Shown here: positions 3,254 through 9,936 of the stretch, in pieces
Layout: the number at the start of each line of letters is the position of its first letter
Numbering within the stretch: the first letter of the stretch is position 1
DNA from: Leptospira sp.
Lineage (GTDB): Bacteria > Spirochaetota > Leptospiria > Leptospirales > Leptospiraceae
Assembly (NCBI GenBank): GCA_034439575.1
Contig: JAWXAQ010000008.1
Span: forward strand, 128,001 to 192,000
DNA length: 64,000 nucleotides
Direction: 5' to 3'
Translations under genes and position numbers: made by a program
Notes under the pieces: model-generated
Seen by the model: only the letters and a program-made list of their open reading frames with translations
The model's database searches: none
Told to the model about the DNA's origin: nothing

Positions 3254-3341
3254 AAGAAAAAGTAGAGATATATTATAAATTTGACACTTTATATTTGCTA
3301 ATTTCTTGACCTTTAAAAGAAAAATCCTTATATCAATAGGT

Positions 3342-3779
3342 ATGACGAATTTACCGCAAAAACCTTCCGTAGCCTTTATCGGTGCATCTTGGCTTTCTTT
3401 ATTCATTGGTATGTTGACTTTTATCGTTGGAATTTGGAATTCCGAAATGGCATTAAACGAAAAAGGATTCTATATTACCATTTTAATGTATGGATTGTTT
3501 TCAGCCGTCTCTTTACAAAAAACAGTAAGAGACCAATTAGAAGGACTTTTTGTTACTGGTATCTATATCGGCTTATGTTGGTTTTCAGTTGGATTGAATC
3601 TATTACTACTTCTTATAGGCTTATGGAATGCAACACTCGCTTTAAGTGAAAAGGGATTTTTTGGAATTTCTTTTATCTTAAGTTTATTTGCTGCCGTTGC
3701 AGTCCAAAAAAATGTACGTGATTTACGAATGGCAGAAGGGGAAATCAAACCTGTGCTAAATCCCAAAAAAATAGATTAA
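3342..3779 (+). CDS. yiaA: Inner membrane protein YiaA (two YiaAB helical-hairpin repeats)
   Basis: Duplicated GxWN...LxEKGF...FSAVSLQKTVRD / FAAVAVQKNVRD motifs; ATG at 3342. Confidence 0.85.
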   Translation: MTNLPQKPSVAFIGASWLSLFIGMLTFIVGIWNSEMALNEKGFYITILMYGLFSAVSLQKTVRDQLEGLFVTGIYIGLCWFSVGLNLLLLLIGLWNATLALSEKGFFGISFILSLFAAVAVQKNVRDLRMAEGEIKPVLNPKKID

Positions 3780-3825: not shown

Positions 3826-4326
3826 ATGACAATAAATAAATTCGAACAGTCTTTAGAGAATGGACCGCATAACAAATTGCAAAAGTTAATCGGTGTATGG
3901 AATGGAAAAACCAAAACTTGGTTTGAAAAGGATGTTTTAGCGGACGAATCGGACGCGAATGCTGCAATTACTTCTTTGTTAGATGGTAGATTTATTTCTA
4001 TTGACTACCAAAGTAGTTTAGAAGGTAAACCGTTTGTAGGAAAGATGATCCTTGGCTTTGACATTCCATATCAAAAATTTACAAGCTCATGGATTGATAG
4101 CTTTCATATGGGAACACAAATCATGTTATCGAACGGAGACGTCCTAGAGAACGGATTTTCTGTAACAGGGACATATGGAAATCCAGAGTATGGTGATAAA
4201 CTTTGGGGTTGGAGGACTGAGATTCAATTTATCAGTGACAAAGAATTTTCGCTGACGGCATATAATATTTCGCCGGATGGGGAAGAGGCAAAGGCAACGG
4301 AGACATTTTATAGAAGAGTGAGTTGA
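3826..4326 (+). CDS. DUF1579-family protein
   Basis: H.KL..LIGVW.G start, GRFI, WIDSFHMGT motif, ending in Y.R. Confidence 0.75.
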   Translation: MTINKFEQSLENGPHNKLQKLIGVWNGKTKTWFEKDVLADESDANAAITSLLDGRFISIDYQSSLEGKPFVGKMILGFDIPYQKFTSSWIDSFHMGTQIMLSNGDVLENGFSVTGTYGNPEYGDKLWGWRTEIQFISDKEFSLTAYNISPDGEEAKATETFYRRVS

Positions 4327-4469: not shown

Positions 4470-5786
4470 TTAACTCCCAAAAATAGTTTCTAATATCTCT
4501 TCGTACTCTTTGAAAATCTTTGTCTGTTTATTTTTTAGGGTATAAGGTGATGGTCCATTTTGATCCATATGTAAAAATAAGGATGTTGCGATCTCATGAT
4601 GGTGTTTGATTTCTATCGCTTCATCAAAGAGATGTGCATACCATTTGTCTTTTGTTAACTTGCGAATTTCATCTTTTCTTACATTGTCAAAATGTTTTTT
4701 ACTTGTTGGGTCCGTATAAGCATTGTTAAAAAGAATTGGCAAAACTTCAGGCCCATTTCCCTTTCTTTCTAGCCAAACTTCTGGTATAAACTTATCCAAC
4801 ACTTGTACTGCATTATGAATGGCTTGTGCCGCCTGATAGTTAACAGGGATTAAAACAGCATCCGAGACTGAAACTCCAATTTTACTAAAGAAGCTCCAAT
4901 TCGTAGGGCAATCGATGAGTATATAATCAAAATTTCCTTTTGTACCAAACATTTCTAATAGTTTTCGGAATTTTTTGATCATGGTTTCTGTGATTGCTTT
5001 TGTCGCATGTAAAGAACTATCAAAACGTTCATCCCCTTTGATGATATGGAGATTTTTTCTGATCCGGATAGTATTGATTCCTCCTTTTAATTCTTTTCCA
5101 AGTAAGATATCAAATATACTTGTAGGTGTTTCTGTTTTTTTAATTTCTAATTTGAATGAATCTGTGAGATCCCTTTGTTGGGGATCTAAATCGATGAGAA
5201 GGACATTTTGCCTTTTTTCTGAAAATACACCTGCAAAGTTTCCAGTCGTTACAGTCTTTCCCACCCCACCTTTATTATTATAAATAGAGACTATGAGTGG
5301 AGTTTTTCTATTCTCATAACTCGATGGTTTTTTTAGAATTTTTTTGAGCAGAGAGATAGTTTTATCTGTGTTAATTTCTAAATCGAGAATTTCCGTGAGT
5401 GGGAAAATAACTTTCTTTTTACGTTGGAAAACTTGGGCATTCTTCCCATTGATAAGGAGTCCATAAGGAACTTCGATTAATCCGTCTGACCTCATATAGG
5501 CGAAAAGTTGAAACTTTGCTTCTAAATAAGTCTTCGCACTCGGATCGGAAAGATTGACGGTGTTCGATTTTGCCTCAATTACAAGATTAGGAATCTGATC
5601 CACATAACAAACAAAATCCGCTTCTCCTGTTCCTTTCAAAGAAACTTTGTCTTTAAAATCCTCACCATTATATCCTAAATGTTGTATCAAGGGTACGACA
5701 AAGCGAGTTTCGACTTCCGATTCACGTCCGCTTTGCTTCAAGGAACGAATGATAGTTGTAAACTCACTTAATTTTTTTGCTGCCAT
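4470..5786 (-). CDS. Fusion of HsdR-N-like PD-(D/E)xK nuclease domain and ParA/Soj ATPase
   Basis: N-terminal ESEVETRFVVPLIQHLGY...ADF...VIEAK...NG; C-terminal deviant Walker A NNKGGVGKT, IDLDPQ and DYILIDCP. Confidence 0.8.
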   Translation of the reverse strand: MAAKKLSEFTTIIRSLKQSGRESEVETRFVVPLIQHLGYNGEDFKDKVSLKGTGEADFVCYVDQIPNLVIEAKSNTVNLSDPSAKTYLEAKFQLFAYMRSDGLIEVPYGLLINGKNAQVFQRKKKVIFPLTEILDLEINTDKTISLLKKILKKPSSYENRKTPLIVSIYNNKGGVGKTVTTGNFAGVFSEKRQNVLLIDLDPQQRDLTDSFKLEIKKTETPTSIFDILLGKELKGGINTIRIRKNLHIIKGDERFDSSLHATKAITETMIKKFRKLLEMFGTKGNFDYILIDCPTNWSFFSKIGVSVSDAVLIPVNYQAAQAIHNAVQVLDKFIPEVWLERKGNGPEVLPILFNNAYTDPTSKKHFDNVRKDEIRKLTKDKWYAHLFDEAIEIKHHHEIATSLFLHMDQNGPSPYTLKNKQTKIFKEYEEILETIFGS

Positions 5787-5967: not shown

Positions 5968-7107
5968 TTATCCTCCTTTCTCCAAAACTCCTTGCCAATC
6001 TTTAATATTCACCCAATGTAAAATTAGGTTTTTAAAAGTTGTCTTTCTTGTTCGACTATCGGATGTTATAATGATATTTTTTCCCATATTATAATGGTTT
6101 CGAAATATAGTTAAATTTTTAGGATCAAATTGTTTTTCTTTCCATTTACATTCTATAGCATCAATTTGATTTCTCGATTTTCTAATCACAAAATCAATTT
6201 CATTTCCATTTTTATTTCTCCAATACATAGGATTCTCTTGGTTGACTGCTTGCATTGTTTCTAAAGTTAAATTTTCTAAAAATTTTCCTTTGTCCTCATT
6301 TCGTAATTCATTGATACCTTGCACATAACAACAAAATCCTGTATCAAAGCCATAGACTTTTGGTTGGTTAACTATTTCTTTATCTGCATTTTGAAAATAA
6401 GGTCGAATGACGGAAATGGCTTTTGTTGCCTCTAATATATCCAAATACTTTGTAATTGTAGGTCGTGAAACACCTGATATTTGAGCCAATTTTGATATAT
6501 CTAAACTATTCCCATTTTGAATGAGGAGCCATTCTAATGCTTTCAGAAATGGTTGTCTTTTTTCTACTTTAAATATTTCCTGAACATCTCTCGCATAAAA
6601 AGAATCGAGCCATTCTGAATAAAATTCAGAATTTAAAGAATCTGATAAAAGGGCTGGCGGTAATCCTCCGTTTAAGATTCGTTTATCGATACTCGCACCA
6701 AAGGCATCTGTTTCGCTGACGAGGACGGGAAGGAAATGGATATTTCTTTTTCTGCCTGTGAGTGAATCTTTAAACTTCTGACTCGCTACTAAAGTGGAAG
6801 ATCCTGTTGCTAAAATTCTTAGTGAGGGAAATTCATCTGATGCAATTTTTAATACTGATGTCGGATTCGTTAGTTGGTGAATTTCATCGAAGATAATAAT
6901 TTTATTTTTGCATTCTTTAAAAAAAGACTCAGCATCAGCTAGCATTTCTTGAACTCTTGGCAAATCACAATTTAAAAATTCGGCTTCCGAAAAAAATTTA
7001 CTTAAAGTAGTTTTTCCTGTTCTACGAACTCCAGAAAGCCAAACAATGGGCATTTTTTTCCAGGCATTCTTTATTTGTTTTGTCCAAAACTCCCTTTCTA
7101 TTCCCAT
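5968..7107 (-). CDS. AAA_14 ATPase with DUF4143 domain (wHTH plus C-terminal PD-(D/E)xK)
   Basis: GVRRTGKTT Walker A, FDEIHQ Walker B, TGSS, SLTGR, GGLP, PKVYGFDTG, EIDFV...IECK. Confidence 0.88.
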   Translation of the reverse strand: MGIEREFWTKQIKNAWKKMPIVWLSGVRRTGKTTLSKFFSEAEFLNCDLPRVQEMLADAESFFKECKNKIIIFDEIHQLTNPTSVLKIASDEFPSLRILATGSSTLVASQKFKDSLTGRKRNIHFLPVLVSETDAFGASIDKRILNGGLPPALLSDSLNSEFYSEWLDSFYARDVQEIFKVEKRQPFLKALEWLLIQNGNSLDISKLAQISGVSRPTITKYLDILEATKAISVIRPYFQNADKEIVNQPKVYGFDTGFCCYVQGINELRNEDKGKFLENLTLETMQAVNQENPMYWRNKNGNEIDFVIRKSRNQIDAIECKWKEKQFDPKNLTIFRNHYNMGKNIIITSDSRTRKTTFKNLILHWVNIKDWQGVLEKGG

Positions 7108-7152
7108 AAATAGACTTTACAAATAGTACACCTAAATGTAAAGTCCATTTAT
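7106..7152 (-). promoter_or_regulatory. 16-bp inverted repeat containing a sigma-70-like promoter; putative operator, possibly leaderless transcript
   Basis: Arms ATAAATAGACTTTACA / TGTAAAGTCCATTTAT (15/16 match, 15-nt spacer). Minus strand reads TTTACA-N17-TAAAGT-N6-ATG. Confidence 0.6.
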
Positions 7153-7160
7153 ATACCGTA

Positions 7161-9515
7161 TTATTGATCATTAGCAAATTTGGAGAGGAAATCTTCTTGT
7201 TCTCTAGATTCAATGGCTCTTTCACTTCGGGAAGCGCGAACAATTTGAATCGCCTTTTCACTTGAAAACTTTTCTTTCCAAATCAAATAAGCTGCAGCTA
7301 AAGTTCCAGATCGTCCTAAACCACCTACGCAATGTATCAATAGATTATCATTATGTTTTGTAAGTATAGTATCCATCCATTGCAATGCACTTTTTAAGGC
7401 TTCAATACTAGGAATTCTTTGGTCAAAGATTGGCAAATAATATGCTTCTATATTAGCTTTTTTGTATTCTTCTTTTAAAGTAGTAACTCCGTATTCGCTA
7501 TATTCAGCTTCAGTGATAAGTGAGATGACAAATTTCACTCTCTGTTTTTTCATTTCCAAAATATCATCGTTAAGTGATCTACCTCGATCTTTTCTGCCTG
7601 GCAAAATTGTAAGGCCAATCTTTTTTGTAAGTGTTTGATTTAATCCATCATCATACTTTAGAAAATCTATCCTCAAGGATTTGGTTTTTTGAATATATGA
7701 TCTGACTTTTTGAATGAGGGTACAACCGCTATATAGAGCCCATTTTCTTTGTATTTCATTACTCTCATCAAAGGAAAGAGTATGCATCGCATAACGAAGT
7801 AGACCAACATGCATTTGGTATGGATCTCTATCCATTTTTATCAATCCAGGATAAAAAGATCTTAACTTAGCGATGACCCGATAGGCTTTCTGAAGTTTAG
7901 GATTTTTAATTTCATTTGGTACATCAAAAGGAAGGGGAATTCCTAAATCTTCATGATTTAGCAAAATGTTTGTTAATTGGACAGCTTCCAATAGTTCTGA
8001 TTCTGTTTCGATTTTTGTAAAAATATAAAGTATGTCATTTTCTAATTTTAAAAGATCACGAATGATATGACCGCGATGCGTATGAAAGAAATCAATCAAC
8101 CAAACATTGTCTTGTGCATCCAAAATAATATTTGCACCATTCAAATCTCCATGAACATAGGCAAGGTTGTGATTGATAGCATCATATTCACGAAGCGAAA
8201 TTAAATCTATTTCATAAAAATGGCAAGGATTGATATTTGATAAATCATTTGAAATTTGAATGCTTTCACCCTCTGCAGGTTTGCCAATCAAAGCTTCCAC
8301 TCTAGACCGAACACTTTTAGCATACTTGGCCTGAAAATCATAATATTCTAATAAATTTAATCTTTCTGTACTTCCGGCTTCATAAAGTCTACCTAATTGT
8401 TGTTGAAATACGACTTCCAAAGTTTTATCAATCATTTTGAAATCATCACTTTTTTCATACATTTTCTGAAAGGTGCGGACATTGCCATCGAGCATTGCCG
8501 CATAACGGTATTTAATTGCACCACGGTTTTCTAATTCACAAAAATCAACGATCGCAGGCGCATTATTCCCTAGGACTTCTTGGATTCTTTCGAATGATGT
8601 TCTTTCCTTGGCGATCAAATCCCGATCGCCAATTTTTACAACACAAGGCACTTGACTGTGACCTAAAATATCAGTGGCTTTTGTTTTCAACACAACATTG
8701 CCGGAAAAACCTCCATCCAAAGTTTTGAATTCGACTTCTTTACATTCTCGAAATAGATAGATTAATATTTTTTTATCAATTTCAGAGATAGGATAATTTG
8801 GATCTAGTTTTAAATGCTCAGTAGTAATTCTGGAATGAGTAGAAATCTTTTTCTCAAGGTCTGGTTGCGATCCAGTTAAAAATTGCGTAAAACTTCCGAT
8901 AGATGGAAAAATGGTGACACCTAATATTTGTTTTAATTGGTCGAGAGCGATAAAATGCATGGAGAGCGAAGAACTCGCAGTCAAAGCAGAACAAACAGCT
9001 ATGTCAAATTGTGGATATCTTGTTTTTAAATCATAAGCAAGAAAGGTTACTTTTGCTTCCGTCCAAACTCCAGTGATACCGACTTTTATTTTTTTACCTT
9101 TGAATGGTTTTAAAATCTCTTCCAGTTTTGTGTCTACAAAATCATTTAATCCAGAAGCATTTACAATATGATGACGGTTAGGTTGATATTGTATCCATGG
9201 CTGGAAAACAAATTCAGCACCTTTTGTGTCTTTTATACAATGATGACCGAATTGGTTTAAATGATCCTTCTCATCTACAGAATCAGGATTGTGCCAATCT
9301 CTGATATGAATGATTTCTAATTTTTCTTTCTTTGTCTGATAGGCCCAATCTATTAACGAGTATATCGGACCATGTTCTACCATTTCCCCTAACAATCTAT
9401 TCGATTCCGCATAACCAACATGAAGCGCATTTGGTAGTTGGTCATATTTATCAAGCAGGGATGTAAAATCATTTTGGAGGCATTGTGTGATTAAAATAGA
9501 AGGTTCATTCGCCAT
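7161..9515 (-). CDS. Isochorismatase/nicotinamidase-like domain + kinase-like phosphotransferase + CDKN3-type Cx5R phosphatase fusion
   Basis: QCLQNDF, RDWH, HHCIKDTKGAEF, GVWTEAKV (isochorismatase fold); GGFSG, VVKIG, HGDLNGANI, WLIDF (kinase fold); LPGRKD, HCVGGLGRSG (phosphatase). Start is ATG 9515 or TTG 9521. Confidence 0.85.
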   Translation of the reverse strand: MANEPSILITQCLQNDFTSLLDKYDQLPNALHVGYAESNRLLGEMVEHGPIYSLIDWAYQTKKEKLEIIHIRDWHNPDSVDEKDHLNQFGHHCIKDTKGAEFVFQPWIQYQPNRHHIVNASGLNDFVDTKLEEILKPFKGKKIKVGITGVWTEAKVTFLAYDLKTRYPQFDIAVCSALTASSSLSMHFIALDQLKQILGVTIFPSIGSFTQFLTGSQPDLEKKISTHSRITTEHLKLDPNYPISEIDKKILIYLFRECKEVEFKTLDGGFSGNVVLKTKATDILGHSQVPCVVKIGDRDLIAKERTSFERIQEVLGNNAPAIVDFCELENRGAIKYRYAAMLDGNVRTFQKMYEKSDDFKMIDKTLEVVFQQQLGRLYEAGSTERLNLLEYYDFQAKYAKSVRSRVEALIGKPAEGESIQISNDLSNINPCHFYEIDLISLREYDAINHNLAYVHGDLNGANIILDAQDNVWLIDFFHTHRGHIIRDLLKLENDILYIFTKIETESELLEAVQLTNILLNHEDLGIPLPFDVPNEIKNPKLQKAYRVIAKLRSFYPGLIKMDRDPYQMHVGLLRYAMHTLSFDESNEIQRKWALYSGCTLIQKVRSYIQKTKSLRIDFLKYDDGLNQTLTKKIGLTILPGRKDRGRSLNDDILEMKKQRVKFVISLITEAEYSEYGVTTLKEEYKKANIEAYYLPIFDQRIPSIEALKSALQWMDTILTKHNDNLLIHCVGGLGRSGTLAAAYLIWKEKFSSEKAIQIVRASRSERAIESREQEDFLSKFANDQ

Positions 9516-9624
9516 AGGCAAATTCTAAAGACAAACTAAGAAAAATCCAGTTAATATTCGGAATTTGCTTGCAAAAAGAAAAATGGAGTTATAATGCGAT
9601 GTTCTAAAGAAGAGGAGAATCAGT

Positions 9625-9936
9625 ATGAAAAATTTATTAATTTTGATTTGTTTGATTTGTGTTCAATCTCTATTCGCTGGAGAAATCGGATCCGACTGCC
9701 AGTTCAAAGGAAAAAAACTTTCTGGAAAAGTTCAGATTGTAAATTCTTTTCCTGACTTCAAAGTCCAGGTAGTTAATAGTTTTCCTGATCTTAAAGTACA
9801 GCAAGTTACATCTTTCCCTAGTGATTGTGGCAAGTGGGAAATTGTGAATAGTTTTCCTGACTTTAAAGTTCAGATTGTGAATTCATTTCCTGATTTCAAG
9901 ATCCAGTATGTGAATAGTTTTCCTGGCGTTCCTTAA
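9625..9936 (+). CDS. Small secreted protein with six ~11-aa repeats (KVQIVNSFPDF)
   Basis: GAGGAG SD, signal peptide ending SLFA, six tandem repeats and two Cys in the mature part. Confidence 0.8.
   Translation: MKNLLILICLICVQSLFAGEIGSDCQFKGKKLSGKVQIVNSFPDFKVQVVNSFPDLKVQQVTSFPSDCGKWEIVNSFPDFKVQIVNSFPDFKIQYVNSFPGVP

Follow-up and report, generated by a model that had tools for sequence, protein, structure and literature searches.

A 64-kb stretch of DNA from Leptospira sp. (GCA_034439575.1, contig JAWXAQ010000008.1), here called the window, contains a gene whose product combines a nicotinamidase-like domain, a TCAD9/APH-type kinase and a KAP/CDKN3-like Cx5R phosphatase, as recognized by Pfam, AlphaFold2 and Foldseek. 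The open reading frame (ORF) of this tri-domain gene occupies positions 7161..9521 of the minus strand, to which all coordinates within the gene refer. It is uninterrupted over 786 codons (786 amino acids), the interval including the stop codon, and full-length relatives are 43-79% identical. The ORF begins with a TTG at 9521, but the sequence makes the ATG at 9515-9513 (residue 3) the likelier true start, because the relatives begin 2-4 residues ahead of the conserved ILITQC strand.

Conservation was judged on an alignment of 52 relatives with 43-78% identity, and residues called invariant below are invariant in that alignment. The mean column identity was 53% across phyla, indicating strong constraint on all three domains. 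The full-length AlphaFold2 model had a mean predicted local distance difference test score (pLDDT) of 89.5 and a predicted template modelling score (pTM) of 0.75. When the full model was submitted to Foldseek, its three parts matched KAP/CDKN3 (1fpz), nicotinamidases and a maltokinase (4u94). The original prediction for this DNA had described a single polypeptide with three domains, the middle one a kinase, and it is borne out: the ORF is intact, Pfam and Foldseek recover all three parts with the expected folds, and the motifs it quoted (GGFSG, the lysine of VVK, HGDLNGAN, IDF and HCVGGLGRSG) are all present. The gene product is read as a self-contained cytoplasmic protein in which a pseudo-nicotinamidase and a TCAD9 kinase form a conserved module and a Cx5R phosphatase is added at the carboxyl end.

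The amino-terminal domain (residues ~6-222; 8856..9506) has an isochorismatase fold and is derived from nicotinamidase, as indicated by Pfam, Foldseek and profile searches of the Protein Data Bank (PDB). The Pfam Isochorismatase family (PF00857) matched residues 57-202 with an E value of 5e-8 and 33.7 bits against a cut-off of 27, and the closest structures in Foldseek were those of PncA (6a8l, 3s2s, 5zn8 and 3o91, TMt 0.77-0.85). The profile of the domain also matched PDB entries 3hb7 (4e-9) and 1ilw (3.5e-7). The first two metal ligands, D75 and H77 of the sequence D75-W-H77 (9291..9299), align with the RDWH motif of Pyrococcus horikoshii PncA (1ilw), and the third, H94 (9240..9242), aligns with the HC motif of the 1ilw segment PRHCVQNTPGAEF. 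The PncA metal-site residues D75, H77 and H94 are fully kept and invariant, so that a metal site is predicted from the sequence.

In contrast to the metal site, the Asp-Lys-Cys catalytic triad of nicotinamidase is not kept. The position of the nucleophilic cysteine is taken by K157 (9051..9053) in the sequence GVWTEAKV, which aligns with the cysteine of GVATEYCV in 1ilw, GVWTNVCV in 3hb7, GVLTDICV in 3s2s and GVCTDICV in 6kua. K157 is invariant in the tri-domain family. The position of the catalytic lysine is A122 in the alignments to 3hb7, 1ilw, 3s2s and 6kua. The third residue, C14 (9480..9482), is invariant and lies four residues ahead of the aspartate of NDF, at the end of strand 1 (residues 8-13 in the model). 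From the register of the motif vDxQxDF and its place at the strand end, C14 is taken by us to occupy the position of the PncA catalytic aspartate; on that assumption the triad is replaced by C14, A122 and K157. Among wider relatives, position 157 is a lysine in most of the tri-domain and two-domain proteins compared and an arginine or other residue in the Nudix variants described below, while C14 is replaced by G, S, D, A or R in several proteins of the two-domain and Nudix types.

The genome, which is 99.98% complete, contains no second PF00857 gene and no NAPRTase/NAMPT gene (PF04095), although NadC is present. Nicotinate is therefore not salvageable and a nicotinamide to nicotinate step would feed nothing. 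A metabolic role as a salvage nicotinamidase was rejected on the two grounds of the replaced triad and the missing NAPRTase/NAMPT, and the domain was not filed as a nicotinamidase enzyme because it does not have the triad. For the same two reasons, the sequence suggests that it is probably a binding module that recognizes a pyridine ligand rather than a salvage enzyme. Thus, of the PncA-type domain originally proposed, the fold and the metal site stand while the catalytic triad does not, and the loss of the triad helps the accompanying idea that the domain acts as a sensor.

The possibility was considered that the domain is a working amidase of non-canonical type, in which C14, assisted by K157, acts as the nucleophile in hydrolysing nicotinamide or some similar amide, and the kinase and phosphatase serve as regulators or carry out further steps. 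Two positions of the triad are held by the invariant C14 and K157, the metal site is preserved, and this is the sole isochorismatase-family domain in the genome. However, the position of the catalytic lysine is an alanine, C14 varies among the relatives whereas Lys or Arg at position 157 is kept more widely, and the genome lacks an NAPRTase to use the nicotinate. Moreover, to our knowledge there is no precedent for such a swap within the triad in the isochorismatase superfamily, which counts against the proposal. Amidase activity is thus considered very unlikely.

The kinase domain (residues ~240-620; 7662..8804) was identified by Pfam, by a model of the domain and by structural searches. The Pfam family TCAD9 (PF19974), which was defined in silico, covers the kinase with a match in two stretches (E 6.8e-57; 194 bits, cut-off 40), confirming the family to which the domain had originally been assigned. 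The match was also recovered in the search of the genome. The glycine-rich loop GGFSG (residues 270-274; 8700..8714), the predicted ATP-binding lysine K296 of VVK (8634..8636), the catalytic loop HGDLNGAN (residues 457-464; 8130..8153), which the profile search aligned with HRDLKPMN of GCN2, and IDF (residues 476-478; 8088..8096), with the metal-binding aspartate equivalent to that of DFG, are all invariant. As read from the sequence, the set of kinase catalytic motifs is complete and intact. The kinase has no activation segment, because in the model a helix begins ~10 residues past IDF.

Profile searches of the kinase against PDB sequences gave weak matches in the catalytic loop, the best to GCN2 (E 2.9e-4) and others to RIO2 and Bud32; a fold search was therefore needed. 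The domain was modelled alone with a pLDDT of 90.4, and the top 25 structural matches in VIA-align were all APH-family kinases of non-ribosomal substrates. The Z scores were 16.3 for a putative APH (3csv), 15.8 for PsiK, 15.4 for corramycin phosphotransferase, 15.0 for the peptide kinase LxmK, 14.9 for MTR kinase and 14.7 for maltokinase. Atypical protein kinases ranked lower (Bud32, Z 12.2; WaaP, 11.3; Rio1, 11.1), and Foldseek agreed. The ranking, which is based on the model, favours a small-molecule or peptide substrate but is not proof of one.

The carboxyl-terminal domain (residues ~630-784; 7170..7634) is a KAP/CDKN3-like dual-specificity phosphatase (DSP) of the Cx5R type according to Pfam, a phmmer search of the PDB and Foldseek. 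Five overlapping Pfam families of Cys phosphatases (CDKN3, DSPc, PTP-SAK, Tc-R-P and PTP-NADK) matched residues 633-778, the best being CDKN3 (5.8e-14, 52.6 bits against 20.7) and DSPc (3.1e-13, 50.1 bits against 33.5). The cut-off of PTP-NADK, described as a DSP-PTPase fused to NAD+ kinase, was just reached (27.1 bits against 27). In phmmer, E values ranged from 1e-15 to 1e-13 for ShufPTP (1e-15), Tk-PTP, KAP 1fpz (2.7e-14) and SsoPTP, and in Foldseek KAP 1fpz matched with TMt 0.85 and 29% identity. The P-loop HCVGGLGR (residues 730-737; 7311..7334), which lies within HCVGGLGRSG (730-739), provides the predicted nucleophile C731 and R737, and H730, C731, G734, G736 and R737 are invariant. D700 in the sequence PIFDQ (7422..7424) lies ~30 residues before the nucleophile and is invariant together with Q701. 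From the usual layout of DSP phosphatases we presume that D700 is the candidate general acid.

Of 7999 candidates scored in a search with the tri-domain protein, 1247 clusters (90% identity) passed E <= 0.001. Nearly all of the best 120 are 750-870 residues long and come from many Leptospira species, Bacteroidota and other phyla. In a collection of 185,579 species genomes, 278 relatives were found among 290 pattern matches, distributed over Spirochaetota, Bacteroidota, Myxococcota, Pseudomonadota, Planctomycetota, Elusimicrobiota and other phyla. Within the genus the gene was detected in 29 of 41 genomes (27 of the 39 of high quality), and within the order in 94 of 156 genomes and 23 of 35 genera, a few kilobases being unavailable in many of these genomes and absence in either case meaning that it was not found with this query. 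The gene is thus not core in the genus, and no known metabolic role was found for it. Broken copies occur as well; the gene is in two frames in three genomes (G003, G022 and G040) and split over two contigs in a fourth (G016). The named matches are saprophytic and other environmental species and none is L. interrogans, though no search aimed at that species was made.

In a quick maximum-likelihood tree built from 66 copies, those of Proteobacteria, Myxococcota and Planctomycetota form one clade and those of Spirochaetota another, the latter enclosing a Bacteroidota group with 98% support. Within Leptospira the tree tracks the species groups, the nearest copy being that of L. ognonensis (77%), and within Leptospirales the gene tree agrees with taxonomy and the locus is syntenic. 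From the distribution counts and the tree, the gene has a long history in Leptospirales, with frequent losses and occasional transfers, and is not core. A search for split or stand-alone forms gave 64 short matches, mostly fragments at contig ends or pieces of broken genes, and possible stand-alone kinases were limited to three of them (P0124-P0126). Additionally, one Brevinematales contig carries two identical tri-domain copies (L039 and L040) with identical predicted neighbours, ~100 kb apart and in opposite orientation, which may reflect either an extensive inverted duplication or an error of assembly.

The contexts in which the two amino-terminal domains occur were surveyed by searching residues 1-620 against 1.84 billion representative proteins, which gave 1698 matches at E <= 0.001 and 162 at E <= 1e-30. 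Forty-one of the best 150 matches, chosen by length to sample non-standard architectures, were run through Pfam. Sixteen of the 41 were two-domain proteins of about 590-660 residues with the isochorismatase-like (iso-like) domain and TCAD9, six had a DSP domain (one of them also a rubrerythrin domain), and in thirteen TCAD9 was accompanied by unassigned regions (two of these also having an isochorismatase match). TCAD9 was found with STAS in two proteins and with HAMP in one. The remaining three were an amino-terminal ADP-ribosylglycohydrolase joined to iso-like and TCAD9 domains (P0303), an ankyrin and histidine-phosphatase combination, and a carbohydrate-binding module with an iso-like part.

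A Leptospiraceae genome (G093) encodes an 868-residue paralogue that is 27% identical over residues 8-607 (E 4e-46) and has a Nudix domain in place of the phosphatase. TCAD9 was present in 43 of the 53 matches to this Nudix family; the other 10 were Nudix proteins, including seven animal TRPM2 channels. The Nudix domain is of the NUDT9 type and the JGI name of the family is ADP-ribose pyrophosphatase. The neighbourhoods of this sister family were compared in 31 loci, 28 of which had the central gene (metagenome loci L083-L112 included). An IMPase-family gene lies directly downstream of the Nudix sister gene in 20 of the 31 loci. IMPase enzymes act on small molecules, and the sister family together with IMPase represents a pairing of kinase and phosphatase that is non-homologous to the DSP fusion. 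Also near the sister gene are PP2C/SpoIIE multi-sensor proteins, often with HATPase_c_2 (12 loci), cNMP-gated or cNMP-binding ion channels (9 loci) and STAS proteins (6 loci). In the G093 genome itself (L082, contig C1, 2070-8840), a tight operon encodes an ankyrin protein, a HisZ-like protein, two HisG-like phosphoribosyltransferases, the iso-like+TCAD9+Nudix protein and IMPase, and looks like a pathway that builds or edits a nucleotide.

The contexts of the module are thus repeatedly linked to ADP-ribose or NAD chemistry, to small-molecule phosphohydrolases and to signalling proteins. The link to nicotinamide, NAD or ADP-ribose that had been proposed at the outset gains from these sister proteins, which swap the phosphatase for a NUDT9-type Nudix domain or add an ADP-ribosylglycohydrolase.

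The signalling contexts could be explained if the protein were a ligand-gated protein switch, in which the kinase marks itself or a partner protein, the mark is removed by the KAP-like phosphatase and the balance between the two depends on a pyridine ligand held by the pseudo-nicotinamidase, so that one protein would make up a whole signalling node. The closest solved phosphatases act on proteins, among them KAP, which dephosphorylates a kinase, and the weak catalytic-loop profile matches are to GCN2, RIO2 and Bud32. The amino-terminal domain looks non-catalytic, TCAD9 is fused to STAS and HAMP signalling domains elsewhere, and the sister family adjoins partner-switching parts (PP2C with HATPase_c_2, and STAS). 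However, the fold ranking of the kinase favours small-molecule kinases and no activation loop is present, no conserved partner lies beside the tri-domain gene (the best neighbour is found in 12 of 81 loci, all close kin), and the sister family replaces the phosphatase by Nudix and IMPase, which are small-molecule enzymes. A protein switch is therefore possible but doubtful. The protein-level writer and eraser of the original prediction is now less favoured because the kinase ranks with small-molecule kinases and because the sister family pairs it with an IMPase-family phosphatase.

The neighbourhood of the tri-domain gene was analyzed by calling ORFs in 80 loci and the window and clustering their products, the central gene being recognizable in 73 of the 81 loci. 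None of the neighbours is shared between lineages; the most widespread clusters occur in the 12 loci of close Leptospira relatives mentioned above. In the window the next gene (5968-7107, minus strand) encodes an AAA_14+DUF4143 ATPase that matches the PADLOC candidate PDC-S01 (1.1e-58), and after it lies a fusion of an HsdR-N-like nuclease (HSDR_N) with a ParA/MinD ATPase (4470-5786, minus strand). These two, a DUF1579 gene (3826-4326) and a YiaAB gene (3306-3779) are four singletons between the tri-domain gene and a syntenic acyltransferase, in a slot of variable content: L. ognonensis has nothing there, and related species carry different genes. The possibility that the AAA_14/DUF4143 and HSDR_N-ParA genes form an operon with the tri-domain gene was considered and rejected, because both are singletons in this slot. 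The defence-like genes are a strain-specific insertion, and the defence flavour of the locus is therefore incidental.

The tri-domain gene is separated from the inserted AAA_14 gene by a gap of 53 nt that contains a perfect 9-bp inverted repeat, GACTTTACA / TGTAAAGTC, at 7145-7137 / 7121-7113 (span 7113-7145). It lacks a T-run and could represent an operator or mark the boundary of the insertion. On the other side, a divergent gene (9625-9936, plus strand) encodes a protein of 103 residues with a start that resembles a signal peptide, five repeats of the VNSFPDFKVQ type and no Pfam match. This repeat protein adjoins the tri-domain gene in 10 of the 81 loci, all Leptospira.

The same genome encodes a distant TCAD9/APH-type kinase of 606 residues without iso-like or phosphatase domains (L081, genome G000, contig C13, 931-2751). 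It is flanked by an SMC-like ATPase with PADLOC matches to Ppl, mad3 and AbiLi and by a GmrSD restriction endonuclease, in a region that looks like a defence island.

A gene for a MoxR-type AAA+ protein adjoins the tri-domain gene in 11 of the 81 loci. Five of these, in Leptospiraceae, are ordinary MoxR-DUF58 pairs. The other six (L057, L058, L069, L074, L076 and L078) are from Bacteroidota, Nitrospinota, Myxococcota and Betaproteobacteria and have a divergent MoxR-like AAA+ gene of 530 codons along with large proteins c12 and c43 and the CoA-ligase-like c44. The partners c12, c43 and c44 had no Pfam match even at E 5 and no PADLOC match, and c44 alone matched NCBIfam, resembling AMP-dependent CoA ligases. 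None of the MoxR-locus partners checked had a vWA or VMAP match in Pfam; a vWA-MoxR-VMAP system could therefore not be shown. In the window, no MoxR, vWA or VMAP gene adjoins the tri-domain gene, and strong AAA_3 genes occur no nearer than on other contigs. Nothing but the six loci with divergent MoxR genes points to the 'ternary complex' setting from which the Pfam family TCAD9 takes its name.

These results bear on the possibility that the protein is a component of an anti-phage or other conflict system, in which the TCAD9 kinase reports NAD+ depletion or works within a ternary system of the MoxR type. The family is named 'Ternary complex associated domain 9', a figure legend in PMC10910872 ties it to vWA-MoxR-VMAP systems, and MoxR-type neighbours do occur. 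The distribution is patchy with broken copies, the second TCAD9-like kinase of the genome adjoins GmrSD, and the next gene in the window is a PDC-S01 candidate. However, a search of PADLOC-DB 2.0 gave no significant match for the tri-domain protein, the best being PD-T4-6 with an E value of 0.033 over 30 residues of the catalytic loop. Furthermore, 70 of the 81 loci have no MoxR neighbour, and where one is present it belongs either to an ordinary MoxR-DUF58 pair or to partners that match neither vWA nor VMAP. The PDC-S01 and ParA genes are singletons in a slot that is empty in L. ognonensis, whereas in Leptospirales the tri-domain gene itself has a tree that tracks taxonomy and a syntenic locus. 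A role in conflict is thus improbable, and the phage-defence framing of the original prediction is not sustained, given no PADLOC match, no neighbour conserved beyond close kin, defence-like genes that are a strain-specific insertion and a gene tree that follows the species.

What the relatives suggest is a protein that processes or detects a metabolite derived from NAD, not one that fights phages. The reading that is tentatively favoured, with a likelihood that falls somewhat short of even, is that the kinase and phosphatase are a pair acting on an NAD-derived small molecule, that the pseudo-nicotinamidase recognizes the ligand and that the role is physiological. The amino-terminal domain would no longer deamidate nicotinamide; its metal site and the new lysine at the floor of the pocket would hold a pyridine-type moiety, such as nicotinamide, nicotinate or a nucleotide carrying one of them. 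The kinase would phosphorylate a hydroxyl of a small NAD-derived molecule rather than a protein, and the phosphatase would strip that phosphate, or another one on the same molecule. In this way the protein may set the phosphorylation state of a metabolite or messenger of the NAD or ADP-ribose type, in physiological signalling or homeostasis and not in defence against phages. It is the substrate, the ligand and the direction of regulation that we infer, from the folds, motifs, residue replacements, distribution and contexts that were observed.

Several observations weigh against a small-molecule kinase/phosphatase pair. The nearest solved relatives of the phosphatase (KAP, SsoPTP and Tk-PTP) are protein phosphatases. 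The APH fold is shared by protein and peptide kinases; LxmK is among the top four matches, and YihE, FN3K and the CotS-type YtaA are also listed. The STAS and HAMP fusions and the PP2C/HATPase (12/31) and STAS (6/31) neighbours of the sister family fit protein-level signalling equally well. Moreover, with both C14 and K157 invariant, the amino-terminal domain might carry a new catalytic activity beyond ligand binding. No computation identified a substrate, and a shared fold does not show function.

A more far-reaching version of the small-molecule proposal, which must be regarded as unlikely, is that the module is the core of an unrecognized bacterial system in which a phosphorylated nucleotide derived from NAD, such as phospho-ADP-ribose or a molecule like NAADP or NADP, is produced and broken down as an intracellular signal. 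The kinase would write the signal and the Cx5R phosphatase would erase it, while selection or gating of the substrate would fall to the metal-bound pyridine pocket and its invariant Cys-Lys pair. The Nudix and IMPase sisters beside cNMP-gated channels and partner-switching sensors would then be variants of the same chemistry.

The individual domains are already known and the architecture is present in public databases under generic names, either 'isochorismatase family protein' or 'dual specificity phosphatase'. No experimental work on the tri-domain family, and no characterized member, was found in the literature, where TCAD9 appears only in passing. Apart from the figure legend in PMC10910872, a methods passage of a 2026 bioRxiv preprint excludes the TCAD9 family, and the word TCAD is not in the main text of PMC7159879, the supplements of which probably contain its definition. 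PMC9503650 makes no mention of isochorismatase, PncA, nicotinamidase, DSP, PTPase or APH, and PMC13464706 (NARP3) concerns PnuC and NadR and is unrelated. As far as these searches show, there is no earlier description of the swap within the triad, of the obligate pairing between kinase and iso-like domain or of the exchange between DSP and Nudix plus IMPase.

The family is large and highly conserved in all three of its domains, with no experimental work found on it. If the small-molecule reading is true, it would represent a new kinase/phosphatase pair in NAD or ADP-ribose metabolism, would give a function to the TCAD9 kinases seen in conflict systems and near CRISPR loci, and would show clearly how a nicotinamidase can become a domain for ligand recognition. 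In Leptospira the gene is lineage-variable and presumably serves in signalling.

Each part of the protein can be compared with a known system. The PncA enzymes of P. horikoshii (1ilw), Streptococcus mutans (3s2s), Bacillus subtilis (5zn8 and 6a8l) and Streptococcus pneumoniae (3o91) have in common with the amino-terminal domain the fold, the RDWH...HC motif and the TxGAEF stretch. Unlike PncA, the domain has K157 for Cys, A122 for Lys and C14 for Asp, is fused to a kinase and resides in a genome with no NAPRTase step. Kinases of the APH/choline-kinase type (3csv, PsiK 9eto, corramycin phosphotransferase 8agy, MTR kinase 2olc and maltokinase 5jy7) share with the TCAD9 domain the bilobal fold, the helical carboxyl-terminal substrate subdomain, the HGDxxxxN loop and the aspartate of IDF, with Z scores of 14.7-16.3 over 268-288 residues. 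However, they are only 12-16% identical, and TCAD9 is a Pfam family of its own that always follows the iso-like domain in this clade. The carboxyl-terminal domain shares the Cx5R P-loop and the fold with KAP/CDKN3 (1fpz), SsoPTP (2i6i) and Tk-PTP (5z59); while KAP and the archaeal PTPs are stand-alone protein phosphatases, the domain described here is fused to a kinase and is interchangeable with Nudix in the sister proteins.

Kinase and phosphatase activities are combined in PFK-2/FBPase-2, AceK, T4 PNKP and the archaeal fusion of NAD kinase with an IMPase-type NADP phosphatase. These systems and PTP-NADK have in common with the tri-domain protein opposing or sequential phosphotransfer in one polypeptide, a likeness of logic only, for their kinase folds are different and none has a nicotinamidase-like domain. 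The Nudix sister family, in contrast, has the same amino-terminal two-domain module, an arginine at the position of the lost nucleophile and a kinase paired with a phosphohydrolase. It differs from the tri-domain family in carrying Nudix rather than DSP at the carboxyl end, in having mostly lost the metal site and in possessing conserved neighbours.

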